From Minisyncoccota bacterium (GTDB lineage Bacteria > Patescibacteriota > Minisyncoccia > JAHIHE01 > JAGLIN01), in contig JAGLIM010000028.1 of NCBI GenBank assembly GCA_023142995.1, positions 1 to 52,094 on the forward strand: DNA of 52,094 bases, in the 5' to 3' direction. Numbering within the stretch: the first letter of the stretch is position 1; every line of letters starts with the position of its first letter. The notes beneath the pieces are model-generated. The model did no database searches. It was not told where the DNA came from and saw nothing but the letters and a program-made list of their open reading frames with translations. The position numbers and the translations under genes are program-made. Shown in pieces: positions 556 through 15,324 of the stretch.

Positions 556-2007
556 ATGTTTGAGCAATCGTTTAAAAATATTGATAATATTCTTCATACT
601 GATTCCGGGTGTGGGACAGAGCTTGATTATGTCGAGCAAACTTCGTGGATTTTGTTTTTAAAATATCTTGATGATTTAGAAGAAACAAAAAAAGTGGAAA
701 ACAAGTTAGCGGGAAAGAAATATAAGTATATTTTGAAATCTGAATTTCAATGGGATAATTGGGCTTGTCCGAAAGTAAAAGATGGGAAATTAGATCATCA
801 CAAAGCGCTTGACGGAGATGATTTAAAAGAATTTGTTAATGACCAATTATTTCCATATCTCAAACAATTTAAAGCCGAAGATCCAAATACGGTTGAATAT
901 AAGATTGGTGAAATTTTTAGTGAATTAAAAAATAGGCTTGATAGTGGATATAAACTTAGAGAAATTTTAAATACGGTTGATGAGATGCATTTTCGCTTGT
1001 ATGAAGAAAAACATGAACTTTCGCATTTATATGAAGCAAAGATTTCTAAAATGGGAAATGCTGGACGGAACGGCGGTGAATATTATACTCCGCGTCCACT
1101 GATTAGAACGATTGTAAAAGTTGTTGATCCGAAAATCGGGGAAACAATTTATGATGGAGCGTGCGGAAGCGCAGGATTTTTGGTTGAAGCGTATAATTAT
1201 CTTACGCAAGATCAAGCGAAGCTTTCCTCAAGTCAAATGACAATATTGCAAGATAAAACTTTTTATGGAAAGGAAATAAAATCTCTTGCCTATATCATTG
1301 GAATTATGAATATGATCTTGCATGGGATTGAAGCGCCGAATATTCGGCATATGAATACGCTTGCTGAAAATATAAATGATTTTCAGGAAAAAGATCGTTA
1401 TGATATAATTTTAGCAAATCCGCCTTTTGGGGCTGGGATTGGGCGAGAGATTCAACAAAACTTTCCAATCAAAACAGGAGAAACCGCATTTTTATTTCTC
1501 CAGCATTTCATTAAAATTCTTAAAGCAGGTGGTAGGGCTGGCATTGTTATCAAAAACACTTTTCTTTCCAACACTGACAACGCTTCAGTAAGTCTCCGTA
1601 AACTGCTTCTGGAAAATTGTAATTTGCACACAGTTCTTGATTTGCCTGGCGGAACTTTTACGGGTGCGGGAGTAAAAACAGTAATTTTATTTTTTGAAAA
1701 GGGAGTGCCAACTAAAAAAGTTTGGTTTTATCAACTTAATCTTGATCGCAATCTTGGAAAAACAAATGCTTTGAATGAAAAAGATTTAGCGGAATTTGTG
1801 GAATTGCAAAAAGATGAAAAAGATTCTGAAAATTCTTGGAGCGTTGATGTGTCCGGTATAGACCAAAGTACCTTTGATTTATCAGTAAAAAATCCGAATA
1901 AAAATGACGAAGTGATTTTACGAGAGCCGAAAAAGATTTTAGAAGAGATGAGAGAGTTAGACAAGGAGAGTGAAGGGATATTAAAAGAAATAAATAAACA
2001 AATTTAA
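556..2007 (+). CDS. hsdM: Type I restriction-modification methyltransferase subunit M
   Basis: GEYYTPR, ACGSAGFL (SAM binding) and NPPF catalytic motif; HsdM N-terminal helical region. Confidence 0.95.
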   Translation: MFEQSFKNIDNILHTDSGCGTELDYVEQTSWILFLKYLDDLEETKKVENKLAGKKYKYILKSEFQWDNWACPKVKDGKLDHHKALDGDDLKEFVNDQLFPYLKQFKAEDPNTVEYKIGEIFSELKNRLDSGYKLREILNTVDEMHFRLYEEKHELSHLYEAKISKMGNAGRNGGEYYTPRPLIRTIVKVVDPKIGETIYDGACGSAGFLVEAYNYLTQDQAKLSSSQMTILQDKTFYGKEIKSLAYIIGIMNMILHGIEAPNIRHMNTLAENINDFQEKDRYDIILANPPFGAGIGREIQQNFPIKTGETAFLFLQHFIKILKAGGRAGIVIKNTFLSNTDNASVSLRKLLLENCNLHTVLDLPGGTFTGAGVKTVILFFEKGVPTKKVWFYQLNLDRNLGKTNALNEKDLAEFVELQKDEKDSENSWSVDVSGIDQSTFDLSVKNPNKNDEVILREPKKILEEMRELDKESEGILKEINKQI

Positions 2008-2098
2008 AGATTTATTAACACATAGATGAACAGTTGAAAACAATAAAAACAATCAATAAATATCTAACATAAGCAAAAAACTAAGGCTTTAAAATTCA

Positions 2099-2152
2099 GT
2101 GTTAAGCGGACTTGACAATAAACCTATGTTTGCTGTATACTACACTTAACAG
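2099..2152 (+). promoter_or_regulatory. Sigma70-like promoter flanked by an inverted repeat
   Basis: TTGACA (2112) - 18 nt - TATACT (2136); GTGTTAAG / CTTAACAG arms on either side. Confidence 0.5.
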
Positions 2153-2165
2153 TAAGATATAGATT

Positions 2166-3605
2166 ATGACATCAAAAACAGAAAAAATAAAAGAGTATCT
2201 TAATGATCAAATGGCTCAAGTTGATTTTCGCGCTAGGGCGTATGTTTTTGATAGTGGGAATAATAAGAGACCAAACAGAAATATTTTTGTAAAAATCCGT
2301 TCCCATTTTCAGAAATTTTTAGATGGCAATGCTTCGTATCGCTGGCTAACGCTTACAGGGCTTCGCGGCGCCGGAAAAACAACTCTTCTGTATCAGTTGT
2401 ACTATGACAAAAAAAATATTGATGCGTATTTTCTTGTCTTGTCTGTTGATGAAATTGTTCAAACGCTTAATAGTAATATATATGAAGTCATTGGAATTTT
2501 TGAAGAATTGATTGGCAAGCCAATAACAAATCTTGATAAGCCACTTTTTCTTTTTTTAGATGAAGTGCAATATGATAAAAAATGGGGGGTGGCACTCAAG
2601 ACAATTTATGATCGTTCACAGAATGTATTTATTTTTTCTACAGGATCAGCGGCAGTTCTGATGAATACGAATGCCGATGTTGCCCGTCGTTCAATTTTTG
2701 AAAAAGTGTATCCATTAAGTTTTACGGAATATATAAAAATTAAAAATGACAAATATGAAATAAAGGGACTTTCAATAAAATTGCGAGATATTATTTTAAA
2801 TAGCCAAAACGCTATTGATGTTTTTCATAAATTACAGAAAGAAGAGCAAAGTATCGCTGATTATTATTTTGGAATTGGCAGATTAGATTTTATTAATTAT
2901 TTATATTATGGCTCTCTTCCGTTTATGATTGCTTTGAAAAATGAATCGCTTATCTATGATCAGATTGGTAAATCTTTAGAAAGAGCGGTGAATAAAGACA
3001 TACCGCAGGTAGAAGGGTTTTCCATTGATATTATAAATAAAATTCCGGCAATTTTATACGCGATAGCGGATATGGATGCTTTGAATTTTACCACGATTGC
3101 ACGTCGTTTTGGAATTTCAAGACCAAAAGTCGCGGAAATTTTTTCTGCTCTTGAAAAAACAGAAATTCTTCATCGTATTTATCCGTATGGTTCGCACTTT
3201 ACGCAAGTAACAAATAAACCGTCAAAATATCTTTTTTCTTCACCGGCATTTCGTGCTATGTATTATAAGACAATTGGAAGTATAATATCAGAGGAAAACG
3301 CGAAAGGTAAATTGCTTGAAGATTTGGTTGGAATGTATCTTTATCGCTTGCTTGATAAAAGGCTTGGAACTTCGTTGACTTACGACAGCGCAAAAGGCGG
3401 GGCGGATTTTGTTGTTCAGAGCGGAGATCGCAAGATAGTCATTGAGGTTGGTGTAAATAAAAAAATATATCGACAAGTCGCGCAAACGGCAAAAAAAGTA
3501 AATGCTTCTTATAGTATTATTATTTCAGAAAAAGCTGAATCAATGGAATACAACGAAGAAATAAACGCAATAAAAATACCATTAAAATATTTTTTATTGA
3601 TGTAG
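2166..3605 (+). CDS. AAA+ ATPase (AAA_14) with C-terminal DUF4143/PD-(D/E)XK-like domain
   Basis: Walker A GLRGAGKTT, Walker B LFLDEVQ, TGS sensor, YGSLP, C-terminal ADFVV...IEVG. Confidence 0.85.
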   Translation: MTSKTEKIKEYLNDQMAQVDFRARAYVFDSGNNKRPNRNIFVKIRSHFQKFLDGNASYRWLTLTGLRGAGKTTLLYQLYYDKKNIDAYFLVLSVDEIVQTLNSNIYEVIGIFEELIGKPITNLDKPLFLFLDEVQYDKKWGVALKTIYDRSQNVFIFSTGSAAVLMNTNADVARRSIFEKVYPLSFTEYIKIKNDKYEIKGLSIKLRDIILNSQNAIDVFHKLQKEEQSIADYYFGIGRLDFINYLYYGSLPFMIALKNESLIYDQIGKSLERAVNKDIPQVEGFSIDIINKIPAILYAIADMDALNFTTIARRFGISRPKVAEIFSALEKTEILHRIYPYGSHFTQVTNKPSKYLFSSPAFRAMYYKTIGSIISEENAKGKLLEDLVGMYLYRLLDKRLGTSLTYDSAKGGADFVVQSGDRKIVIEVGVNKKIYRQVAQTAKKVNASYSIIISEKAESMEYNEEINAIKIPLKYFLLM

Positions 3606-3668
3606 AAAATTTATTAAAAAAATATATGAACGAACTCATAAACATCAAAGTAATTCAAGATAAAATAT

Positions 3669-4493
3669 ATGAAAAAAGAAAAAATTGAAATCAAAAATAA
3701 ACTTATCACTGTAAGTTTATCAAAAAATGAGAATGATTATTTTTCTCTTACGGATATGGCTAAATTTAAAGGTCAAGATACAGGACTAATTATTTCTCAT
3801 TGGCTTACTACTAAATACACCATCCAATTTATGGGAATTTGGGAACAAATGCACAATAAAAATTTTAATGTTACGGAATTCCGTAACATTAAAAATGAGG
3901 TTGGAACTAATGGATTCGTCGTTTCTTCTTCTATGTGGATAAAAAGAACAAATGCGATAGGGGTGCGATCATCCGCTGGTAGATACGGTGGCGGGACTTT
4001 TGCTCATAAAGATATTGCCTTTGAATTTGCGACATGGATTTCGCCTGAATTTAAGTTGTATTTGATTAAAGAATTCCAGCGATTAAAAATAGAAGAGAAT
4101 AAAAAGTTGTCTTTGGAATGGAATTTAAAAAGGACTTTATCAAAAGTAAATTATAAAATACATACAGACGCTATTAAAGAAAATATTATTCCAAAAGTAA
4201 TTTCTAAAAAACAAGCTAAAATTATTTATGCGTCAGAAGCGGATATTTTGAATGTGGCTTTGTTTAATAGGACGGCAAAAGAATGGAGAAACGAAAATTC
4301 CGGTAAAAAAGGAAATATTAGGGATTACGCAAATATTACTCAATTGGTTTGCTTGTCAAATCTGGAAACTCTTAACGCAGAATTTATTCGCAGTGGCTTT
4401 GAGCAACAAGAGAGGTTGAAAAAACTTAATGAGATTGCTATTATTCAAATGAGGTCACTGGTTGGCAACAAGAGTATTAAGAAATTGAAATAG
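3669..4493 (+). CDS. KilA-N domain DNA-binding protein
   Basis: DYFSLTDMAK, GRYGGGTFAHKDIAFEFATWISPEFKLYLIKEFQRLK signature. Confidence 0.9.
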   Translation: MKKEKIEIKNKLITVSLSKNENDYFSLTDMAKFKGQDTGLIISHWLTTKYTIQFMGIWEQMHNKNFNVTEFRNIKNEVGTNGFVVSSSMWIKRTNAIGVRSSAGRYGGGTFAHKDIAFEFATWISPEFKLYLIKEFQRLKIEENKKLSLEWNLKRTLSKVNYKIHTDAIKENIIPKVISKKQAKIIYASEADILNVALFNRTAKEWRNENSGKKGNIRDYANITQLVCLSNLETLNAEFIRSGFEQQERLKKLNEIAIIQMRSLVGNKSIKKLK

Positions 4494-4526
4494 TTATTTG
4501 GTTAGTTGAAAATACGATTTTATGGA

Positions 4527-4702
4527 AGATTTGGATTATTTTATATCCATTCCCAGTTCTGGGAATGGACAAAAAGCCAAATCTAAAGGAATAATCATTG
4601 ACGCGCGGGAACTGTTTTGTAAACAGTTTCTGATGTTTCCCAAGCAAATAGAATTATTGTATCTTCAAAATAAATGAAACTGATTACAAACCAGTTTCTG
4701 CG
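4527..4702. repeat. Cluster of REP-like hairpins
   Basis: AGATTTGG...TCCATTCCCA-GTTC-TGGGAATGGA...CCAAATCT (4527-4584) and two GGGAACTG...CAGTTTC hairpins (4605-4632, 4676-4702); a related copy lies at 30086-30111. Confidence 0.6.
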
Positions 4703-4807
4703 ATAGATAATTGATTTTTTTATTTAAAAATAGTAAAATAATGGTAAGAATAAGAAGTAAATTTAAATTATTATAACAAGTTACATATATTATTTTAAAA
4801 ATAAAAT

Positions 4808-6049
4808 ATGCCAAAAACAAAAAAAATAAAAGTTCTCGATTTATTTGCTGGTGCCGGAGGATTTTCTGAGGGTTTTGTTAACGCAGGCTGTAATATGGTT
4901 GCTCATATTGAAATGAACAAAGATGCTTGTGAAACTATTAGAACAAGAACGATTTATCACTCTTTAAAAAAGATTGGGAGACTTAGCGAATATAAAAAGT
5001 ATATGTTGGGTGAAATTGACAGAGATGAAATAGTGGAAAAGTACAATTTACAAAATGAAATTGATTCGGTTATTAATGCTGAAATAAAAAAAGATAACTA
5101 CAAAGAATTAATTAATCAAGTTAGGAAAAAAATAGGAAAAGAAAAAATGGATATTATAATCGGTGGACCACCTTGTCAAGCTTTTTCAATAATTGGAAGA
5201 TCAAGAGATAAAAACAATATGAGATGGGATAAGAGAAATACTTTGTATAAGTATTATATTGAATTTTTAAAAGAGTTTAAGCCTAAAATTTTTGTGTTTG
5301 AAAATGTTCCTGGATTACTGTCTGCTGCAAAAAGTCGTCATTTCAATACTATGAAGAGAATGATGAGAAAAGAAGGATACGAAATTGGTTATAAAATAAT
5401 AAATGCTGCAGAATATGGAGTGCCACAAAGAAGAAGGAGAGTGATATTAATTGGATGGAATGAATATTCAAAATTAATTAAATATCCAGAATTTAAAAAA
5501 GTAGAAAGAAAATATAATGTTGGTGATTTCTTAATAAATCTTCCTGAGCTGAAAGCGGGTCAGAAAGTTGATGCTGTTGAATATAATGAAGAATCTGATG
5601 TTGTAAAAAGTTTAAAGATTTGTAATCCAGAAGTGAATGTTCTTGAGTCTCATATTGCGAGACCAAACACTGATCAAGATTTGAACATCTATAAAAAGGC
5701 AGTATTAATTAAAAAGAGAGGAATAAATCTAAACTATAATGATTTACCAGAAAAACTTAAAACTCATAAGAACCGAAAGGGGTTTTTAGATCGGTTTAAA
5801 GTGGTGGATTTTGAATCTTCTGCCTGTCAAACTGTTGTAGCTCATATATCCAAAGATGGACATTATTATATTCATCCGGATATAAAACAAAATAGATCAT
5901 TAAGTGTTCGTGAAGCAGCGAGACTTCAAACCTTTTCAGATGATTACAAATTTGAAGGAAGTAGAACTGCACAGTTTAAACAAATCGGAAATGCAGTACC
6001 ATTAATGCTTTCAAACTTGATAGCTCCAAAATTAATAAAATATGTTTAA
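4808..6049 (+). CDS. dcm: DNA (cytosine-5)-methyltransferase
   Basis: Motifs I DLFAGAGG, IV GGPPCQ, VI ENV, VIII QRRRR, IX LSVREAARLQTF and X QIGNAVP. Confidence 0.97.
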   Translation: MPKTKKIKVLDLFAGAGGFSEGFVNAGCNMVAHIEMNKDACETIRTRTIYHSLKKIGRLSEYKKYMLGEIDRDEIVEKYNLQNEIDSVINAEIKKDNYKELINQVRKKIGKEKMDIIIGGPPCQAFSIIGRSRDKNNMRWDKRNTLYKYYIEFLKEFKPKIFVFENVPGLLSAAKSRHFNTMKRMMRKEGYEIGYKIINAAEYGVPQRRRRVILIGWNEYSKLIKYPEFKKVERKYNVGDFLINLPELKAGQKVDAVEYNEESDVVKSLKICNPEVNVLESHIARPNTDQDLNIYKKAVLIKKRGINLNYNDLPEKLKTHKNRKGFLDRFKVVDFESSACQTVVAHISKDGHYYIHPDIKQNRSLSVREAARLQTFSDDYKFEGSRTAQFKQIGNAVPLMLSNLIAPKLIKYV

Positions 6050-6059
6050 CATTTGAAAT

Positions 6060-8051
6060 ATGAAATCAGGAAAACAAATTTTTAGACCAAAGGCAAGAAT
6101 TATTAAATCATTGGGTGATGAACTTATAGGTAATGAGTATGTTGCGATAAATGAGCTTGTAAAAAATTCTTATGATGCAAAAGCAACATCCGTTCTTATT
6201 GAATTATCTAAAGATAAAATAGTAATTAGTGATGATGGAGAAGGAATGACTTCGGAACAACTTAAAAAAGGTTGGTTTGAACCAGCAACAAATATAAAAG
6301 TTGGGAAAAAAGGGCTATTAGGAGAAAAAGGAATCGGTAGATTTGCAACCGTTAAATTAGCTAAAAAGTTGAATTTAAAAACCAAAGCGAAAGGACATAA
6401 TTGCATTGTTAGTAATTTTGACTGGGAAATTTTTAATGAAGACAAAAACACTTATCTTGATGAGATAAAGATTGACTGGGAAGAAAAAAAATGTGATGGC
6501 TTAGCTAGTCATGGCACAATATTAACTCTTTCTGATCTTGATGTTAATTGGTTAGATGAGAACAGAAAAAAAGAATTGAAAGTATTTCTTAGCAGAATGA
6601 TTAATCCATTTGATGAAGTGAAGGATTTTAAAGTTGAATTAAAGATTGGAAAAGATATTTTTGATATTGCTCCAAGTGAAGTTTTAAATCATCCTCATTA
6701 TGAGATAAAAGGTCAGTTTTTTGATAATAAAATAGAATTTGCTTATAAAGGATTAAAAATAAAAGAAAATGTAATAAAAGATATTAAGAATCCAAAATTA
6801 TTGTCATGCGGATTTTTTAAATTTATTTTTAGAATTTGGGATAGAGATGTAGAAGATATGAAAGAGCTATCTGAAAAATTAAAAATCAAAAGAAGCGATA
6901 TTAAAAAAGACCTTGATGAAGCGATGGGGATGAGCATATATCGTGATAAATTTAGAGTGCTTCCTTATGGAGAATTAAATAATGATTGGCTTAAATTAGG
7001 ACATAGAAGAGCTCAAAATATAACTATGTGTATAGACAATAATCAAATAGTTGGTTACATAAGTATAACAAAAGAAGGAAATAAAGAATTAAAAGATAAA
7101 ACTAGCAGAGATGGACTACAAGAAAATACAGCATATGATATTTTTAAAGAAAATATAAAACAAATTCTTAAAGAAATTGAAGCAAGAAGATATATAGAAA
7201 GAAAACCAAAAAGAGAAGAAATTAAAGCAAGGTCATCTCGTCAATTTATAAAAGAATTTAATTTAGATGATGTCAGTAAATATGCAAAAGAAAAATATCC
7301 AGAAGATAAAGTATTAGTCAAGAAAATAGACAAAAAAGAAACTGAAATTATTGAACAGGGGAAAAAATTCCAAAAATTAATTTTAAGATATAGAAGGTTA
7401 TCTACTCTGGGACAGTTACTGGAAGATGTTATTCACGAGATTAATGGTTCATTCGCAGGATTATCTACAAATATTGGAATTATAGAAAATTATTCAAAAG
7501 ATAATAAAAAGATTTTAGCTTGCACTTTAGCTATAAGAGAAAGCCAGAAAAATATAAATCAATTTGTCAATAGGTTAAAGCCATTTGCCGAAAGAAACAG
7601 AGGGTCAAAAAAAATGATAAGTATAGTTAACGAGATTAAAAACATAATAGCAATAAAAAAAGCGGAAATAGATAAAAATAAAATAAAAGTTAAGTTGCCT
7701 GTTAATGATGTGAAACTTTCTATGAGAACACTTGATTTATTTTCAATTATATCAAATTTAATAGATAATAGTATTTATTGGCTGAAAGAAAATAATAGCG
7801 AGAAAGATAGACAAATAATAATTAAACTCAAAGAAGATTCTGGTCAAACAATAATAACTTTTTGTGACAATGGTCCAAATGTTCCCGTTGAATATAGAGA
7901 AAGTATATTTGATCCATATTTTAGTTTAAAAAAAGATGGAACTGGACTAGGTCTTTCTATTATTGGAGAAATAGTTTCTGAATATGGAGGAAAATTTGAT
8001 TTTATTGAGGATAATGAATATCAGGGTGCTGCATTTAGGATTACTTTATAA
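6060..8051 (+). CDS. Cytoplasmic MORC/GHKL ATPase fused to a C-terminal histidine kinase
   Basis: N-terminal ELVKNSYDA, DDGEGM, GEKGIGRFA, HGT and S5-like YRDKFRVLPYG; C-terminal H-box IHEI, NLIDNS, DNGP, IFDPYFS and GTGLGL; no TM segment. Confidence 0.9.
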   Translation: MKSGKQIFRPKARIIKSLGDELIGNEYVAINELVKNSYDAKATSVLIELSKDKIVISDDGEGMTSEQLKKGWFEPATNIKVGKKGLLGEKGIGRFATVKLAKKLNLKTKAKGHNCIVSNFDWEIFNEDKNTYLDEIKIDWEEKKCDGLASHGTILTLSDLDVNWLDENRKKELKVFLSRMINPFDEVKDFKVELKIGKDIFDIAPSEVLNHPHYEIKGQFFDNKIEFAYKGLKIKENVIKDIKNPKLLSCGFFKFIFRIWDRDVEDMKELSEKLKIKRSDIKKDLDEAMGMSIYRDKFRVLPYGELNNDWLKLGHRRAQNITMCIDNNQIVGYISITKEGNKELKDKTSRDGLQENTAYDIFKENIKQILKEIEARRYIERKPKREEIKARSSRQFIKEFNLDDVSKYAKEKYPEDKVLVKKIDKKETEIIEQGKKFQKLILRYRRLSTLGQLLEDVIHEINGSFAGLSTNIGIIENYSKDNKKILACTLAIRESQKNINQFVNRLKPFAERNRGSKKMISIVNEIKNIIAIKKAEIDKNKIKVKLPVNDVKLSMRTLDLFSIISNLIDNSIYWLKENNSEKDRQIIIKLKEDSGQTIITFCDNGPNVPVEYRESIFDPYFSLKKDGTGLGLSIIGEIVSEYGGKFDFIEDNEYQGAAFRITL

Positions 8052-8067
8052 ATTAATATTTTGATAT

Positions 8068-9114
8068 ATGCCTATAAAAATTTTATTAATTGATGATAGT
8101 GACGAAATGCTTGAATCTACAAAAGAATTATTTAAAACAAAGGGATACATTTGTAGTATAATAAATAGATTTGATGATGGTTTGAAAGAATTGACTAAGG
8201 ATAATTTTAATATTATTATAACGGACTATAAGGATAGTAAAGGAGATAGCGATGCAGGTAAAAAAGTAATTAATAAACTACAATCAATATATTTCTCCCC
8301 TTTAATAATTTATACAGGATTTATAGGTAGCATTGATGACGAAATAATTAAAAAACAAAATAGTTTTTTTAGAATTGTTGAGAAAGGAGTAGATTCTGAT
8401 AAAGAATTATTAAAAACTGTAGATGATATTTTGAAAAGTAAGGAATATAAAGTGAAAAAAGGGATAGAGGAGGAAATAGAAATAACTTTAAAAAATAATT
8501 TTAGAGAATACTTTTGGGATATTGTTCATAATTATTGGAGTGATTTTGAGAAGATTAACGAAGAAACACTTAGGAATGTATTATTAAGAAAAATATTAAA
8601 TAATATTCATCAAAAATACTTAACAGGAAAAGAAATTAATCCAATTGAGTTTTATGAACATCTTGCTATTGATCATTCAGAAATTCAAACTGGGGTAATT
8701 ATAAAAAAGGATGGAAATTTTTATATTTGCGTAAGTAATGATTGTGATTTATGTAGATGTAATTTAAATGCTCTAATTTTTCTCAAGATTAAAAATTATG
8801 ATGAAATTTTAATAAGTTTAACTGAGAATAGTAAACCTGAAAAAGTTAAACATATTAAAAGTAGATTTTTGAATAACAATCACAATGATTATAGAGAAAA
8901 AAGTTTTATTTTTCCTAAAACATTTTTTTTCTTGGGAGGTATTGCTTATTTTGATGAAATAATTTCATTATTTGAAGTAAAAGAATGTGAAATAATCATT
9001 TCTGATGACATTGAATTTATTGCAAAAGTCAATCAACCATTTTTATCTAGCTTAATTTCTAATTTTTCTAAGTTTTATAATAGAATTGGAACTCCAGATA
9101 TTGATGTGTCTTAA
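8068..9114 (+). CDS. Response-regulator receiver domain protein with uncharacterised C-terminal domain
   Basis: LLIDD (D9, D10), phosphoacceptor D53, T83 and K106; C-terminal CVSNDCDL...YNRIG region is not an HTH. Confidence 0.8.
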   Translation: MPIKILLIDDSDEMLESTKELFKTKGYICSIINRFDDGLKELTKDNFNIIITDYKDSKGDSDAGKKVINKLQSIYFSPLIIYTGFIGSIDDEIIKKQNSFFRIVEKGVDSDKELLKTVDDILKSKEYKVKKGIEEEIEITLKNNFREYFWDIVHNYWSDFEKINEETLRNVLLRKILNNIHQKYLTGKEINPIEFYEHLAIDHSEIQTGVIIKKDGNFYICVSNDCDLCRCNLNALIFLKIKNYDEILISLTENSKPEKVKHIKSRFLNNNHNDYREKSFIFPKTFFFLGGIAYFDEIISLFEVKECEIIISDDIEFIAKVNQPFLSSLISNFSKFYNRIGTPDIDVS

Positions 9115-9255
9115 AACAAAATAAATTACTATTTGTTGTTTTTATAATTTTGTTAGATTTACAGAACTTTTTTTATAGAATGTTATGTTATTAATGAACG
9201 ATAATACTTTTTTCTGAAAGTATTGATTGTAGAATATTATTTTTTTAAAAAATAC

Positions 9256-10452
9256 ATGAAAACTAACTGGCAAACAAAAAAACTCGGTGAAGTTTGTGAT
9301 ATTTCTATTGGGAAAACTCCTGCTCGCGGGAATGAGAAATTTTGGGACAAGGAAAAGGAAACGAATAATGTTTGGTTGTCTATTAGAGATTTAAGCAATA
9401 CGAATAAAAAAGATGTTTTTGATAGTCGTGAATATATTTCTGATTCTGGAGCGAAATTATGTAAGAAAGTAAAACAAGGAATTTTGCTTGCGAGTTTTAA
9501 ATTGACACTTGGACGATTGGCATTTGCGGGAACGGATTTATATACAAACGAAGCAATCGCAGCGCTTGAAATTAAAAATAGCAAAGAATTAAATAAAGAA
9601 TATTTATATTATTATTTAACTTTTTTTGATTGGCATGCAGAAACAAAAGGAGATATAAAAGTAAAAGGTAAGACATTAAATAAAGCTAAATTAAAAGAGA
9701 TAAAAGTTTTTATTCCGCTTCTTTCCGAACAAATCCGTATTGTCAAAATTCTTGATGAAGTGTTTGGCAAAATGGAAATAGCTAAGAAAAATGCGGAGAG
9801 AAATTTGCGGAATGCCAAAGAGCTTTTTGAATCGTATTTGCAGGGGGTTTTTACGAATAGTGGGGATGATTGGGAGGAGAAAAGATTGGGGGATGCTTAT
9901 GATGTTCGTGATGGTACTCACGATTCACCAAAATATCAGAAAGAAGGATATGTGTTAATTACTTCAAAAAATCTTAAGAGAGATGAATTGAATTTTAAAA
10001 ATATTAAATATATTTCTGAAAAAGATTATCAAAAAATTAATGAAAGAAGCAAAGTCCACAAAGGTGATATTCTATTTGCTATGATAGGAACTATTGGGAA
10101 TCCTGTTGTTGTGAAAGTTGAACCAGTCTTTGCGATAAAAAATGTCGCCTTGTTTAAAATTCCAAAAGAGCATGATAGTTATTTTCTTAAATATTTTCTA
10201 GATTCAAAATTTGTAATAGACAAGATGATAAGTGAAGCAAAGGGAACTACACAAAAATTTGTTGGTCTTGGCTATCTCAGGGATTTTATAATTAAGCTAC
10301 CAAAGCTATCCGAACAAAAACAAATCGTAATCAAACTTGACGCTCTCTCCGCATCCACTAAAAAACTTGAAAAAAACTATCAACAGAAAATTGATGATTT
10401 GGATGAGTTGAAGAAATCGGTTTTGAAGAAGGCGTTTGAGGGGGAGTTATAA
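9256..10452 (+). CDS. hsdS: Type I R-M specificity subunit S
   Basis: Two TRDs with conserved repeats W..K.LGE/D and P.LSEQ..IV..LD; C-terminal LKKSVLKKAFEGEL; ATG 9256 preferred over TTG 9223. Confidence 0.95.
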   Translation: MKTNWQTKKLGEVCDISIGKTPARGNEKFWDKEKETNNVWLSIRDLSNTNKKDVFDSREYISDSGAKLCKKVKQGILLASFKLTLGRLAFAGTDLYTNEAIAALEIKNSKELNKEYLYYYLTFFDWHAETKGDIKVKGKTLNKAKLKEIKVFIPLLSEQIRIVKILDEVFGKMEIAKKNAERNLRNAKELFESYLQGVFTNSGDDWEEKRLGDAYDVRDGTHDSPKYQKEGYVLITSKNLKRDELNFKNIKYISEKDYQKINERSKVHKGDILFAMIGTIGNPVVVKVEPVFAIKNVALFKIPKEHDSYFLKYFLDSKFVIDKMISEAKGTTQKFVGLGYLRDFIIKLPKLSEQKQIVIKLDALSASTKKLEKNYQQKIDDLDELKKSVLKKAFEGEL

Positions 10453-10457
10453 TCTAT

Positions 10458-10606
10458 TAGGACTTCCTTATTTATGTCATTTCGAGCCCTTTAAGGCGAG
10501 AAATCTAAAAGCAATACTATACAGAAATAATCTTTATATTAAGAGAGTTCTTAGATCTCTCAATCGCTTCGCTCATTTCGAGATGACATAAAGTGAAGAA
10601 GTCCTA
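10458..10606. mobile_element. MITE-like palindromic element with TA ends and an internal GTCATTTCGAG...TTCGAGATGAC repeat
   Basis: TAGGACTTC / GAAGTCCTA terminal IRs; inner ATGTCATTTCGAG / TTCGAGATGACAT arms. Confidence 0.65.
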
Positions 10607-10617
10607 TTTATTTTAAA

Positions 10618-10646
10618 TTGCAAAAAAGCGTGTAGCTTGTTATAAT
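10618..10646 (+). promoter_or_regulatory. Sigma70 promoter of the ParA-like gene
   Basis: TTGCAA - 17 nt - TATAAT with extended TG. Confidence 0.5.
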
Positions 10647-10653
10647 AAAAATA

Positions 10654-11673
10654 ATGAAATTTATACGAACAAAAAAGCTTTTGTTTGCGAATAATAAAGG
10701 CGGAGTCGGCAAGACTACGCTGGCTTATAATATCGCAGTTAAATTTTCAGAAATGGGATATAAAACTGTTTTGGTGGATTTAGATCCGCAATGCAATTTG
10801 TCCAGACTGTCCTTAGGTCTGTTTGAAAAAAATTTATTTTCCGATAATCAAAAAACAATCTATACCGTTCTTGAGGGTATTATCAAAGGAGGATCCGATA
10901 TAGACAAAAGCGTGGATTTTGAAAAAGTTGGAAGTAATAATAACTTATTTATTTTACCAGGAAGCTTAAAGCTGTCTCAATATGAAAATTCTTTAATATC
11001 ATCCTACGGTGAAGCGGCGCAAGGAGTTGAGAGAGGATTTTTTATTACAAGCGCCATTGATAGATTTTTAACAGAAAAAGGACTAAATGAAGAAATAGAC
11101 CTTTTTATAATTGATACATCGCCAAATCTTAATCTTTTAAACAGAGTGATATTTTTGGGTTCTGATTATTTCGTCACGCCTTTAATGCCAGACGCTTTTT
11201 CTGTTCAAGGTATTGAAAATTTAGGAAACACTTTTGAAGAATGGAAAGATAATTGGAAAAAAACTGCAAAAGTTTTAGCAAAGGACAGAGAAATAGCGCA
11301 TAATAAAGTTTTAGACGGTGATGGTTTGTTTATAGGTTATATAATAAATTCATACAACCAATATTCAAAAAAACCTATTAAAAGTAATGAGGAATGGATT
11401 GCTAAGATCCCGACTTATATTAAAAAATATTTATCAGAAAAACATTGCAGGAATGGACTTGTTGAAAAATCATGGAAATCAGAATTAGCTTTGATTAAGG
11501 ACTATGGGCAATTATCTCCGTTAGCGCAAATTAAAAATAAAGCCATATTCAATCTTGATCCGACTACTGATGGTTTTGAAAATGTAAAAGGAACAAAAGA
11601 AAATTTAGAACAATCACAAAAAGAATTTAGCGAACTTTCAGAAAAGATTTTAAGAATATTGGAAGAATACTAA
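10654..11673 (+). CDS. ParA/Soj-family ATPase (orphan, no ParB)
   Basis: Deviant Walker A NNKGGVGKTT, DLDPQCN and IIDTSP. Confidence 0.88.
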   Translation: MKFIRTKKLLFANNKGGVGKTTLAYNIAVKFSEMGYKTVLVDLDPQCNLSRLSLGLFEKNLFSDNQKTIYTVLEGIIKGGSDIDKSVDFEKVGSNNNLFILPGSLKLSQYENSLISSYGEAAQGVERGFFITSAIDRFLTEKGLNEEIDLFIIDTSPNLNLLNRVIFLGSDYFVTPLMPDAFSVQGIENLGNTFEEWKDNWKKTAKVLAKDREIAHNKVLDGDGLFIGYIINSYNQYSKKPIKSNEEWIAKIPTYIKKYLSEKHCRNGLVEKSWKSELALIKDYGQLSPLAQIKNKAIFNLDPTTDGFENVKGTKENLEQSQKEFSELSEKILRILEEY

Positions 11674-11787
11674 ATTTAATAAATGAAAAATAAAAATCGT
11701 TAATTTTTCTAAATACTTGGAATTAACGGTTTTTTGTAAAAGGCGTTGTTGACAGAAGCGTGTATACTATAGTTTAAATTAAAATCT

Positions 11788-14127
11788 ATGAATGAATCAG
11801 AAACAAGAGCGGAGTATATAGACCCAAAGCTAAAGGCGAGTGGATGGGGTGAAATTGAAGGGTCAAAAGTTTTGCGTGAATTTCGAATCACTGATGGAAA
11901 AATTCAAGCAGGAGGAATGCGAGGAAAGTCAGAAATTGTTGACTATGTTTTGGTTTATAAAAATCGAAAAGTTGGTGTGATTGAAGCTAAGGCTGAAAAT
12001 TTAGAAGTAGGCGAAGGAGTGGCGCAAGCTAAATCATACGCAGAAAAATTGCACATTGATTATACATATGCGACGAATGGGAAAGAGATTTATGAAATGT
12101 CTTTGGAAAATGGGCAAGAGGGGAATGTTGTTGATTTTCCGACTCCTGATGAATTATGGAATAAAACTTTTTCTGACCAAAATCAATGGAAAGAAAAGTT
12201 TGATAATGTTTTATTTGAAGATAGCGGAAGCGGGAAAAAGGTAAGATATTATCAAGAAATTGCGGTGAATAATGTTTTAGGCGCAGTGGCTGAAGAAAAA
12301 GATAGAATTCTTTTGACGATGGCAACAGGAACAGGAAAAACATTTATTGCTTTTCAAATTGCTTGGAAACTTTTTCAAACCCGCTGGAATTTAAAACGAG
12401 ACGGAGCTCGCCGACCGAGAATTTTATTTTTAGCTGACAGGAATATCTTAGCTGATCAGGCATTCAACGCTTTTTCCGCGTTTGATAAAGACGCGTTGGT
12501 CCGTATTAATCCTTTGGATATTCGCAAGAAAGGCGGGGTGCCGATGAGCGGTAGTGTTTATTTCACGATTTTTCAAACTTTTATGAGTGGTCAGAATGGA
12601 AGTTCATATTTTGGAGAGTATCCATCTGATTTTTTTGATTTTATTATTATTGACGAGTGCCATCGTGGCGGCGCAAATGACGAGAGTAATTGGCGAGGAA
12701 TTTTGGAATATTTCTCTCCTGCTATTCAGCTTGGTTTAACGGCAACACCAAAAAGACAAGATAATGTTGACACATACAGTTATTTTGGTGAACCCGTATA
12801 TATTTATTCGCTTAAAGAAGGTGTGAATGACGGGTTTTTAACGCCGTTCAAAGTTAAACGAATTCAAACTACTCTTGATGAATATGTCTATATATCTGAT
12901 GATCAAATTATTGAGGGTGAAGTGGAAGAAGGGAAGATTTATGAAGAAGCTGATTTTAATCGAATTATTACTATTAAAGAGCGTGAGGCAAAAAGAGTTC
13001 GCATTGTGTTAGATGAGATAAATCAAAATGAAAAAACAATTATATTTTGCGCTACTCAAGATCACGCTTTAGCGGTTCGTGATTTGATAAATCAAATGAA
13101 AGAAAATAAAGATTCAAATTATTGTCAGCGTGTGACTGCGAATGATGGCGCTCGCGGAGAGCAATTTTTGAGGGAATTTCAAGATAATGAGAAAACAATT
13201 CCGACAATTTTGACAACTTCACAAAAACTTTCTACTGGTGTTGATGCACGCAATATTCGAAATATTATTTTAATGCGTCCAATAAACTCAATGATTGAGT
13301 TTAAGCAAATTATTGGACGAGGAACAAGGCTTTTTGATGGAAAAGAATATTTTACGATTTATGATTTTGTAGATGCTTATCATCATTTTTCTGATGAAGA
13401 ATGGGATGGTGAACCAATAGAAAAGATAAAGGAAAAAGAGCAAAAAGAAGTAAGCTATGATGAGAAATCAAAAGATGTAGAAATAGAGACTGTTAAAGAT
13501 GAAGAAAATGAATCTAAGAAAAAATTAAAAATCAAATTGCGTGATGGTAAAGAACGTGAAATTCAGCATATGATTTCAACCTCTTTTTGGAGCACTAATG
13601 GAAAACCGATTTCAATTCAAGAGTTTATGGATAATATGTTTGGTGTTATGCCAGAATTTTTCAAAAATGAAGATGAACTGCGAAAAGTTTGGTCAAATCC
13701 AACCACAAGAAAAACTTTTTTAAATCAAATTGCTGAAATTGGATATGGAAAAGATGAATTGGAAACATTGAAAAAAATGATTGATGCGGAAAATAGCGAT
13801 TTGTTTGATGTTTTAACTTACATCTCATTTCTTACTAAGCCTATTTCAAGAGCTGAAAGAGTGGCACAGTCAAAAGACAAAATATTTGAGGGACTAGACG
13901 AAAAACAAAAAGAGTTTTTAGATTTTGTATTATCAAAATATGAAGAAAAGGGTGTTGAGGAACTTGATGAAGAAAAATTGCCAATCTTGTTAAATTTGAA
14001 ATATAACGCCATTGCCAACGCGGAACAATCACTCGGCGATGTAGATCAAATCCGTTCAATGTTTTTTGAGCTTCAAAAGGATTTGTATGCGAAAGGAGTT
14101 AAGGAATATGAGGTGGATAAGGTATAG
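11788..14127 (+). CDS. hsdR: Type I restriction enzyme subunit R (EcoEI-like)
   Basis: N-terminal nuclease DYVL...IEAK; SF2 motifs ATGTGKT, DECH, TATP, QIIGRGTR; EcoEI_R_C-like tail. Confidence 0.95.
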   Translation: MNESETRAEYIDPKLKASGWGEIEGSKVLREFRITDGKIQAGGMRGKSEIVDYVLVYKNRKVGVIEAKAENLEVGEGVAQAKSYAEKLHIDYTYATNGKEIYEMSLENGQEGNVVDFPTPDELWNKTFSDQNQWKEKFDNVLFEDSGSGKKVRYYQEIAVNNVLGAVAEEKDRILLTMATGTGKTFIAFQIAWKLFQTRWNLKRDGARRPRILFLADRNILADQAFNAFSAFDKDALVRINPLDIRKKGGVPMSGSVYFTIFQTFMSGQNGSSYFGEYPSDFFDFIIIDECHRGGANDESNWRGILEYFSPAIQLGLTATPKRQDNVDTYSYFGEPVYIYSLKEGVNDGFLTPFKVKRIQTTLDEYVYISDDQIIEGEVEEGKIYEEADFNRIITIKEREAKRVRIVLDEINQNEKTIIFCATQDHALAVRDLINQMKENKDSNYCQRVTANDGARGEQFLREFQDNEKTIPTILTTSQKLSTGVDARNIRNIILMRPINSMIEFKQIIGRGTRLFDGKEYFTIYDFVDAYHHFSDEEWDGEPIEKIKEKEQKEVSYDEKSKDVEIETVKDEENESKKKLKIKLRDGKEREIQHMISTSFWSTNGKPISIQEFMDNMFGVMPEFFKNEDELRKVWSNPTTRKTFLNQIAEIGYGKDELETLKKMIDAENSDLFDVLTYISFLTKPISRAERVAQSKDKIFEGLDEKQKEFLDFVLSKYEEKGVEELDEEKLPILLNLKYNAIANAEQSLGDVDQIRSMFFELQKDLYAKGVKEYEVDKV

Positions 14128-14267
14128 TAAAATTATAATTTTTCCTATCTTACTTTTATTGCTATGGCTAGAATTTTAAGATAGAGTTTTTGTGTTTTGT
14201 TGCGTGTTTGTCTGTCTTTGAGAAGGAATAATAGAATAGTAACTTTTTAAAAATTAATTAATATTTT

Positions 14268-14735
14268 ATGGATATAGATTTTTCAGAAAGTTTAATCAAA
14301 GGAAAAATTGCTGAGATTATTTTTGACCAAATGTTTCGTGAGGCAGGGAAATATACAATTATTCCTTTTGGTTATGAAAGTATTGTGCCAGAATTATCGC
14401 AATGTAAAAAATTTTCTAAAGCACAAAAAGTAATAGATACTATTAGACATTCACCTGATTTTGTTTTAATCTCAAAAAATGAAGAAAGTGTTTATCTTGT
14501 TGAAGTAAAATATAATTCTAAGTTTGACGAAAAAAGGAATAAGGAACTTGCTATCAATCAAGATAAAAGATGGCATCCATCGTGGATTTTTATAGCAACA
14601 TTAGACGGTTTTTATTTTGATTCGTGTTCAAAAGTAATCAAAAATAACGGTAAAGTCTCAAAGCTTGAAAGTTGGTTAATTTCAAAAGATTTGCAACACA
14701 AATATTTGGAACTTCTCGAAAAATTTGAACACTAA
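14268..14735 (+). CDS. Hypothetical protein, probable PD-(D/E)XK nuclease fold
   Basis: GKIAE...SPDFVL...LVEVK pattern. Confidence 0.55.
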   Translation: MDIDFSESLIKGKIAEIIFDQMFREAGKYTIIPFGYESIVPELSQCKKFSKAQKVIDTIRHSPDFVLISKNEESVYLVEVKYNSKFDEKRNKELAINQDKRWHPSWIFIATLDGFYFDSCSKVIKNNGKVSKLESWLISKDLQHKYLELLEKFEH

Positions 14736-14797
14736 TACCTGTTTTTATATTCTTTATTTGTGTGAATAGAAGAACAGTAAATTTTAATAAATTATTT

Positions 14798-15178
14798 ATG
14801 AAAATAACTAAAAAACAGTGGGATAAATTATGGGGTGGAACAGGTCCTTATTCACAGGCAAATTTAACGATTCAAACAAGGATTCTGGACGATAAAATTA
14901 GTCGTGTATTTTTAGTTGTGGAAGCAGACATAAACCCGCTTACTTATGAAATAGTTAAACAAAACAGGTCTCAATTTAGAAACGATATAATGATTCAACA
15001 ATTATTGGATCATGCGGAATATCGCGGTCAGCAGTTTGGTTATGTTGTTTCTGCTTTTGAAGAAGAATTTACTGATAAAAGTGTTTGGAGCGAAGCGCAA
15101 GAAAGACTTGAATACACAAAAGATAATCTTATTAAAATGCATAAATTTGTAATGGATTTGCTGGATATCAAAATATGA
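14798..15178 (+). CDS. Hypothetical protein
   Basis: ORF with plausible composition; ATG 14798 preferred. Confidence 0.6.
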   Translation: MKITKKQWDKLWGGTGPYSQANLTIQTRILDDKISRVFLVVEADINPLTYEIVKQNRSQFRNDIMIQQLLDHAEYRGQQFGYVVSAFEEEFTDKSVWSEAQERLEYTKDNLIKMHKFVMDLLDIKI

Positions 15179-15324
15179 TTTTGCACAGGGCCCATTCGCT
15201 TACGGTGGGGTCACCAGCGTAATAATATGCAATAATAGGTTTTGATAAATACAGAAGAAGTGAATTTGTAAAGTAAAATTGCTAAGTTTTGTGATGAGTT
15301 GAAGGTAAATAAGCCATTTTAAAG

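Follow-up and report, generated by a model that had tools for sequence, protein, structure and literature searches.

A cytosine methylase, a soluble MORC-like kinase and a receiver protein as a candidate methylation-linked defence module in a Minisyncoccota bacterium

INTRODUCTION

What function could unite, in three adjacent genes, a C5 cytosine DNA methyltransferase, a soluble histidine kinase with a second ATPase head and a receiver protein with a conserved tail? The question is raised by a contig of a Minisyncoccota bacterium (GCA_023142995.1, contig JAGLIM010000028.1), whose 52,094 nt were analysed as a whole and are called here the window. A preliminary description of this DNA saw in the three genes, hereafter the triad, a candidate defence system resembling restriction-modification (R-M) and gated by a phosphorelay. 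Here, we report that the triad is a unit kept across many phyla; chance juxtaposition is excluded, because kinase and receiver genes stand together in 32/33 related loci and the methylase gene adjoins them in 31/33. We assign a rough probability of 0.45 to the reading that the triad is a self-contained, horizontally mobile and methylation-linked defence module, belonging as a short form to the paraMORC two-component-like systems, in which the MORC-like head would sense a DNA-related cue, D53 of the receiver would be phosphorylated and the C-terminal domain (CTD) would act as effector. This reading is drawn from sequence comparison. The genes and domains of the triad are the following.

4808..6049, + strand: dcm, C5 cytosine DNA methyltransferase, 413 aa, motifs PPCQ (Cys123), ENV and GNAVP
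6060..8051, + strand: soluble kinase, 663 aa, with HATPase_c_3 (MutL/Hsp90/MORC-type) head at residues 28-138, conserved middle region to about residue 430, DHp-helix histidine H459 and HATPase_c at 558-663
8068-9114, + strand: receiver protein, 348 aa, whole gene, made of REC domain, helical linker and CTD
8068..8436, + strand: REC domain, residues 1-123 of the 348-aa protein, phospho-acceptor D53
8440..8622, + strand: helical linker, residues 125-185 of the 348-aa protein, from the secondary structure of an AlphaFold2 model
8623..9111, + strand: CTD, residues 186-348, mixed alpha/beta, presumed output domain

RESULTS

The triad is a conserved and mobile unit

The three genes are tightly packed on the + strand, as the preliminary description had it, with gaps of 10 nt (6050-6059) and 16 nt (8052-8067), neither of which holds a purine run like a Shine-Dalgarno sequence ahead of the kinase or receiver start codon. 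A scan of one genome per species, in which genes were simple open reading frame (ORF) calls, yielded 33 related loci spread over at least six phyla, including Bacteroidota, Acidobacteriota, Chloroflexota, Bacillota, Pseudomonadota and Nitrospirota. In 32 of these loci the receiver gene has a kinase homologue immediately upstream, and the contig of the remaining one begins 131 nt before the receiver gene. Four of the 32 kinase genes are split into two or more ORFs and three are cut by a contig end. Dcm directly adjoins the pair in 31 of the 33 loci, upstream of it (the order of the window) in 20 and downstream in 11; in one of the other two (L010) it lies 4.3 kb off with three genes between, and the other (L020) is a contig of 2.4 kb, too short for a Dcm call. 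These counts bear out the co-occurrence of methylase, kinase and receiver genes on which the preliminary description had made its proposal depend. One extra chromosomal locus has the order Dcm-kinase-receiver-Vsr.

Several observations point to mobility. The receiver protein matched 25 plasmid records, 22 of them from Campylobacter and 23 predicted to be conjugative, and the Campylobacter and Bacillus plasmid records that were examined carry kinase, receiver and dcm together. Furthermore, the triads of a Streptococcus and a Mesocricetibacter are 94% (Dcm), 77% (kinase) and 68% (receiver) identical, and this near-identity across phyla indicates transfer as a unit. The spread of the family is patchy: the CTD profile matches 6 of 301 Bacteroidota representatives, and a search with the receiver protein through 60 relatives of the window's 1.48 Mb genome did not find the triad, giving three weak, receiver-only matches. 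A metagenome scan for close relatives returned one weak match, no phage record matched the family, and one viral contig gave a receiver-only match.

The neighbourhoods of the related loci consist of defence islands and mobile elements. Vsr adjoins 12 of the 33 loci, which suggests long-term host methylation, and an HhH-GPD glycosylase gene adjoins one; no constant nuclease gene was found among the 121 neighbouring ORFs of 32 related loci. Triads lying in type I R-M loci are limited to the window and a Mesocricetibacter locus (L031). In the latter, fragments of a type I system (N6_Mtase at 3684-3977 and EcoR124_C at 9890-10783) flank the triad, representing a second type I insertion.

The kinase carries two GHKL modules and no membrane span

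Pfam places HATPase_c_3 at residues 28-138 of the kinase (E 8.5e-21) and HATPase_c at residues 558-663 (E 6.1e-22). In an alignment of 26 sequences, the GHKL ATPase motifs of the head (E32, N36, D58/G60/G62 and G88-R94) are invariant, as are H459 (H box), N566/N570 (N box), G605 (G1), F617 (F box) and G627/G629/G631 (G2) in the transmitter, with D603 of the G1 box nearly invariant. The DHp histidine and the N, G1, F and G2 boxes are thus all in place, as in HisKA-type kinases. In a PDB search, the 26-member kinase profile matched histidine kinases with its positions 446-692 (best E 5.1e-32) and the ATPase domains of Hsp90/endoplasmin and MutL with its positions 7-145.

No 19-residue stretch reaches a Kyte-Doolittle value of 1.6, the maxima for the kinase and receiver proteins being 0.94 and 1.46, so a membrane span is not expected in either, in agreement with the soluble kinase of the preliminary description. 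Its statement that the module itself contains neither a cognate type II restriction enzyme nor Vsr also holds, since Pfam, PADLOC and NCBIfam showed no helix-turn-helix (HTH), no known nuclease and no Vsr family in any of the triad proteins. In the kinase and receiver protein, the same three libraries gave no nuclease family beyond an N-terminal GHKL likeness to REase_II models.

The receiver protein ends in a conserved domain without named relatives

Pfam Response_reg matches residues 5-109 of the receiver protein (E 2.3e-5) at 25 bits, under the cut-off of 30.2, and 55 of 84 members of the receiver family match this canonical model. The phospho-acceptor site was correctly described as intact: across 12 sequences D10, D53 and K106 are invariant and D9 and T83 nearly so, and the protein therefore combines a receiver fold with the acidic pocket, the phospho-accepting Asp, the Thr/Ser and the Lys of REC domains. 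In the AlphaFold2 model, built from an 84-sequence alignment (predicted local distance difference test, pLDDT, 91.7; predicted template modelling score, pTM, 0.82), the linker forms two long helices (125-153 and 165-185); its W150 is invariant and its W157 nearly invariant in the 12 sequences. Fold searches with the model of the entire receiver protein (PDB Foldseek, VIA wide, VIA second look and viral) returned receiver-domain matches only, with effective coverage to about residue 190.

Behind the linker, no HTH family was found and the tail is conserved and non-HTH, as had been supposed. The signature of the CTD is E194-x-Y196, [ST]-P-x-C226-D227 and R339-x-G341-x-P343. E194, Y196, C226, D227, P283, R339, G341 and P343 show no variation in 31 diverse sequences; across 84 sequences this still holds for C226, and the conservation of Y196, D227, R339 and G341 is at least 90%. 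The model places C226-D227 at the start of a short helix (225-230) that follows a beta hairpin (210-221), and R339 in the tail behind the last helix. Judged by this conservation, the Cys-Asp, which is invariant, and the Arg, which is nearly so, resemble an active site more than a DNA-binding output.

The CTD belongs to no Pfam, NCBIfam or PADLOC family, a PDB sequence search with its profile gave 0 matches at E<=10, and its nearest Atlas structures are homologous clusters, all of them unnamed or response-regulator. A weak but recurrent Pfam RsgI_N match (E 0.012-0.043) on the 'YY..LTP' hairpin was judged to be a short pattern match. At E<=1e-3 the profile collects 622 proteins of 86-368 aa, nearly all unnamed or named 'response regulator'; a separate search for longer proteins bearing the CTD found none, which is weak evidence. 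A CTD with an invariant Cys-Asp, a near-invariant Arg and no named relative is new to this analysis.

Some proteins consist of the CTD only. Such genes, coding for 182-188 aa, were seen in Bacteroidota (L054, 1043-1609; L055, 813-1379; L056, 7415-7963) with no kinase or Dcm nearby, and two of them overlap a small upstream ORF, an arrangement reminiscent of toxin-antitoxin pairs.

Near-identical kinase-receiver pairs adjoin unrelated methylases

The methylase matches Pfam DNA_methylase (E 1.3e-64), NCBIfam dcm (E 7e-59) and the PADLOC DrmMII model (E 1.1e-161). Its set of C5 methylase motifs is complete, and C123 and 80 further columns are invariant in 19 relatives. Among solved structures its top sequence matches are the catalytic domains of eukaryotic DNMT1 (E 5.8e-27), narrowly above M.HaeIII and M.HhaI. 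Elsewhere in the same genome, a Vsr gene lies about 1.2 kb from a Dcm fragment (contig C33), so Vsr is present in the genome, though outside the module, and another contig (C56) holds another C5 methylase.

Over the pairwise identities of 24 intact triads, kinase and receiver are correlated with a Spearman coefficient of 0.91, against 0.45-0.47 for Dcm with either, values that are descriptive because kin are non-independent. The clearest case is the pair of loci L005 and L006, where the kinases are 82-85% and the receivers 82% identical, whereas the Dcm proteins belong to different clades (28% over 103 residues). The differences between the two kinases and between the two receivers are few and evenly spread, and a swapped specificity block is not visible. 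Since near-identical pairs adjoin unrelated Dcm genes, the kinase-receiver pair does not seem, by this comparison, to have a sequence specificity of its own. Either target recognition comes from the methylase or the trigger is not site-specific; in type I and type III R-M systems and in BREX, recognition is supplied by methylase subunits. The observation of unrelated Dcm genes beside pairs that are 82-85% identical is new to this analysis.

The triad reads as a short-form sister of a described two-component-like system

Statements about the publications cited below refer to the portions of each that were available. The fusion of a GHKL domain to a histidine kinase was noted in 2008 among the putative enzymes of REBASE (Orlowski and Bujnicki, PMC2441816), where the R.EcoUTORF4938P subfamily has an N-terminal GHKL domain and a C-terminal histidine-kinase domain with N, D, F and G motifs. 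The R.HgiDII and R.EcoUTORF4938P subfamilies resemble the window kinase in that a protein with an N-terminal GHKL domain has an m5C methylase as its neighbour (PMC2441816). The likeness to R.HgiDII is confined to the ATPase head, as the NCBIfam BbrUII/HgiDII restriction enzyme model covers residues 14-194 of the kinase at 64.6 bits against a cut-off of 550, and the kinase-type proteins are without demonstrated nuclease activity. Moreover, the window has a receiver partner, which goes unmentioned for the GHKL enzymes of REBASE in the available part of that article (PMC2441816). In the same year, Iyer, Abhiman and Aravind (PMC2292703) linked paraMORC GHKL ATPases to cytosine methylases and Vsr and proposed an ATP-driven, R-M-like defence. 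Unlike the window system, their paraMORC1-5 have helicase partners or nuclease/TIR tails, and the terms 'receiver' and 'two-component' are absent from the accessible text (PMC2292703). Two further sources touch on the subject in their available portions: the Tiamat preprint repeats the paraMORC sensing hypothesis, and a figure legend of DefensePredictor gives a predicted HATPase+REC system.

A trio of this kind was described computationally by Bellieny-Rabelo, Pretorius and Moleleki in 2021 (PMC8011034) as a long form, two-component-like and tied to R-M and paraMORCs, with HEF_HK as well as Response_reg_2 domains (Pfam PF19191 and PF19192). Their long-form kinases (HATPase_c_3, HEF_HK and HATPase_c) are linked to Response_reg_2 proteins in 91.6%, over 644 regions, and the C5 methylase is usually upstream (PMC8011034). 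In all five long-form loci that we examined, Dcm is followed by a kinase of about 1000 aa and then by a Response_reg_2 protein of 544-634 aa; as additional neighbours, Vsr, HNH_2 and a methyl-directed restriction enzyme occurred in one locus each. Long form and window are alike in the order Dcm-kinase-receiver (5/5), in the sequence of HATPase_c_3 head, DHp His and HATPase_c, in solubility, and in having Vsr and R-M neighbours. They differ in size, with about 1000 versus 663 aa for the kinase and 544-634 versus 348 aa for the receiver protein, and in the profiles that they match. HEF_HK stays below the Pfam cut-off in the window kinase (13 bits, E 0.15, against 24.1), although at the expected place (450-510), and is absent at E<=1 from the kinases of six relatives. 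Response_reg_2 does not match the window receiver protein at E<=10, any of the 84 family members at E<=1e-3, or any of five genomes holding short-form loci. The CTD core 'TG.I..YY..TP.CD' is nevertheless common to both forms (hhalign 96.5%, E 9e-10, 47 columns), the terminal R-x-G is shared too, and the Atlas CTD model compares with a Response_reg_2 cluster at a template modelling (TM) score of 0.58-0.59. Because the profiles differ yet the CTD core and the terminal R-x-G are shared, the window triad is read as a short-form sister family of the published long form, overlooked by both the HEF_HK model and that for Response_reg_2.

Anti-phage defence has been shown for Ambrosia, a cluster of five genes coding for an XRE regulator, an N6A methylase, a HATPase kinase, a REC-winged HTH (wHTH) protein and a type IV HNH nuclease (bioRxiv 10.1101/2025.09.30.679545). 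All five proteins are needed, the receiver mutation D60A abolishes defence and the cluster genes are induced on infection (bioRxiv 10.1101/2025.09.30.679545). Likened by description only, Ambrosia and the window system both group in one cluster a methylase with a histidine-kinase/Hsp90-like ATPase and with a receiver protein; they differ in that the Ambrosia methylase is an N6-adenine and not a C5 enzyme, and in that XRE, HNH and wHTH were not found in or beside the triad (Pfam, PADLOC). Within the literature collection searched, no experimental study of the Dcm, MORC-kinase and receiver-CTD trio was found other than that on Ambrosia. The general design of methylase, GHKL kinase and receiver is therefore already known, from 2008, 2021 and 2025. 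The novelty claimed in the preliminary description was too strong, with the fusion noted in the first of these years, the trio described in the second and a related system validated in the third.

Two of the long-form loci have a nuclease gene immediately upstream of Dcm and in the same orientation. In L051 it codes for an AspBHI_N and Mrr_cat methyl-directed restriction enzyme (13881-15284; PADLOC mREase_II, E 2.1e-147) and in L050 for an HNH_2 nuclease (3304-4431), and these loci may pair the methylase with a nuclease possibly cutting methylated DNA, as in Ambrosia.

The triad corresponds to none of the other systems considered. Of DISARM class 2 it matches DrmMII only, and none of DrmA, DrmB, DrmC and DrmE was found among the 11 window proteins covered by the PADLOC scan. 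Detocs reportedly works by the logic proposed here for the triad, in that a kinase perceives infection and passes a phosphate to a receiver joined to an effector domain; unlike the triad, it is said to have no methylase and to use other sensor and effector domains. Neither the kinase nor the receiver protein has a PADLOC match to DtcA, DtcB or DtcC at E<=0.01. Nor does the triad class as a type II R-M system, as Pfam, NCBIfam and PADLOC gave no cognate endonuclease of known fold in the kinase or receiver protein, and no nuclease is constant among the 121 neighbours of the 32 related loci.

The host locus is a type I restriction operon

The preliminary description placed the triad as an insertion between hsdM and hsdS. 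The location is right, but five + strand genes lie there, of which those for an AAA_14/DUF4143 ATPase and a KilA-N protein come before the triad. The features of the locus are the following.

556..14127, + strand: host locus, type I R-M operon with embedded genes (hsdM, hsdS and EcoAI-type hsdR)
556-2007, + strand: hsdM, type I R-M
2166-3605, + strand: AAA_14/DUF4143 ATPase, PADLOC candidate PDC-S01
3669-4493, + strand: KilA-N protein, PADLOC PDC-S22, E 1.6e-122
4494..4807, no strand: AT-rich region of 314 nt, 5' of dcm, with 23-nt palindromic units and promoter-like hexamers; candidate control region
9223-10452, + strand: hsdS, type I R-M
10654-11673, + strand: ParA-like (ParA/AAA_31-type) ATPase between hsdS and hsdR, from library scans
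11788-14127, + strand: hsdR, EcoAI-type, type I R-M

The window locus is a defence island, where PDC-S01 and PDC-S22 accompany the triad within a type I R-M operon. The G+C content at third codon positions (GC3) is 0.14-0.20 in the triad versus 0.24-0.28 in six flanking genes, and the triad is therefore a compositional unit distinct from its locus. In the gap 5' of dcm, a 23-nt palindromic unit of the type AACTGTTT..AAACAGTT occurs in two copies (4610-4632 and 4678-4700) that are 78% identical and 68 nt apart, and a third hairpin lies at 4540-4575. From their sequence, these palindromes and the hairpin may be operators or terminators, making the gap a candidate control region.

AAA_14/DUF4143 or KilA-N genes adjoin the triad again in the related loci L026 and L023. 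Just past hsdR, a 155-aa ORF (14268-14735) weakly matches the N-terminal part of TnsA-like endonucleases (E 4.4e-5, under the cut-off) and, faintly, the HinfI family, and may code for a small nuclease.

DISCUSSION

The phosphorelay suggested in the preliminary description is plausible on the sequence evidence. Under the reading preferred here, Dcm would methylate host DNA constantly, as suggested by its intact catalytic motifs and by Vsr beside 12 of the 33 loci. The GHKL head and the middle region of the kinase would form a cytoplasmic, ATP-dependent sensor, because the head sits where the sensor of a kinase normally does and because such a role has been proposed for paraMORCs. On sensing, the kinase would phosphorylate itself at H459 and hand the phosphate on to D53 of the receiver; the residues for these steps are conserved and the chemistry is predicted. 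Phosphorylation would then release the CTD, with its invariant Cys226-Asp227 and near-invariant Arg339, as an effector acting on DNA or on the cell. A bolder claim, which we consider rather doubtful, is that the CTD would be a previously unrecognised, phospho-activated effector enzyme that uses the Cys-Asp and the Arg and is common to the short and long forms (>600 proteins). The triad would then be restriction-like, with recognition provided by an interchangeable methylase and with a MORC-like DNA sensor that releases the strike through a His-Asp phosphorelay.

Several results weigh against the preferred reading. A classical restriction enzyme must match the target of its methylase, and the methylase swap, as far as sequence comparison tells, speaks against R and M specificities that are matched in this classical way. 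In the Ambrosia preprint (bioRxiv 10.1101/2025.09.30.679545), the system's own methylation does not protect phage, and the authors, in the portions available, prefer transcriptional control by the receiver protein. Of the relay-gated defence first proposed, the conserved unit, the phosphotransfer residues, the non-HTH tail and the defence-island context stand, and a plain R-M system with a relay is weakened by the methylase swap and by the unprotective methylation of Ambrosia. As to the sensor, the two GHKL modules (HATPase_c_3 and HATPase_c) and all the histidine kinase boxes attributed to the 663-aa protein are there, while the S5 or transducer region also attributed to it was not confirmed, the kinase family aligning with five MutL transducer domains at an hhalign probability of 0.25%. 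As to the effector, no enzyme signature (nuclease, protease or other) was recognised in the CTD. Three candidate folds were rejected for it with hhalign: a sortase-like Cys enzyme, considered for the 'LTxxC' likeness (0.1% against 8 sortase domains), a MazF/PemK-like barrel (0.2% against 9 PemK domains) and a Vsr or PD-(D/E)xK-like fold (1.0% against 12 Vsr domains, with only the six residues 'G.PDI' aligned). Finally, the split kinase genes (L006, L028, L032 and L033) in 4/33 loci cannot be interpreted, since the assemblies behind at least three of them may contain frameshift errors; the idea that they reflect decay linked to loss of Dcm was set aside on the same ground.

The triad might instead be a transcriptional switch, as preferred for Ambrosia, in which the kinase detects infection and the phosphorylated receiver turns on the module or nearby genes, the CTD and linker being a DNA-binding output. 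The induction of the Ambrosia genes on infection and the wHTH described for its receiver protein in the available text would fit this, and the two 23-nt palindromic units in the 314-nt region 5' of dcm could be operators. However, an HTH family was found in 0 of 84 receiver family members, and the model shows two long helices and then a mixed alpha/beta domain, with no winged helix. The invariance of the Cys-Asp and near-invariance of the Arg again appear more active-site-like, the neighbouring genes are variable, with no separate constant nuclease among 121, and CTD-only proteins of 182-188 aa are found away from kinase or Dcm. Taken together, control of transcription appears unlikely. An abortive infection or guard system is improbable as well. 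There, the kinase would respond to some phage signal that has nothing to do with methylation, the CTD would kill or arrest the cell, and Dcm would be linked for another reason, for example to make the substrate of a methyl-directed activity or to enforce addiction. A position inside a type I R-M operon is reminiscent of the PrrC guard and counts in favour of this idea, but only the window and L031 are so placed. The tolerance of the kinase-receiver pair for unrelated Dcm partners also agrees with it, as do the modification-dependent (L051) or HNH (L050) nuclease next to Dcm in 2/5 long-form loci and the failure of the Ambrosia methylase, as reported in the available part of that preprint, to protect phage. 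On the other hand, the adjacency of Dcm in 31/33 loci favours a direct role for it, and Vsr beside 12/33 loci suggests long-term methylation of the host.

The same Vsr genes, together with the HhH-GPD glycosylase gene beside one locus, could be taken to indicate housekeeping, in which the MutL-like ATPase-kinase and its partner would aid repair or maintenance of 5-methylcytosine sites (very-short-patch repair) and not defence. Yet Vsr goes with many Dcm genes whatever their other partners, which counts against this idea. Iyer et al. (PMC2292703) do draw, in the portion available, a parallel with MutL in mismatch and very-short-patch repair, but the patchy spread (6/301 Bacteroidota representatives and 0/60 relatives), the presence of the module on conjugative plasmids and its defence-island neighbours make a housekeeping role very unlikely.

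If the triad is a transcriptional switch, it would be an ordinary regulated methylase module. If the methylation-linked defence reading is true, it would be a compact, three-gene form of bacterial immunity in which DNA methylation and a two-component phosphorelay are coupled, and a bacterial MORC-like ATPase would gain a defined sensor role. The methylase swap poses a sharp question, namely, which protein reads the DNA sequence, and the triad is simpler to dissect than the 1000-aa long form or the five-gene Ambrosia, as it is small and soluble and offers clear point mutants. Should the CTD prove to be an effector enzyme, the system would have a signalling step between sensing and cutting, which no characterised R-M system has. 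The defence reading would also add a new effector domain family, with more than 600 proteins.

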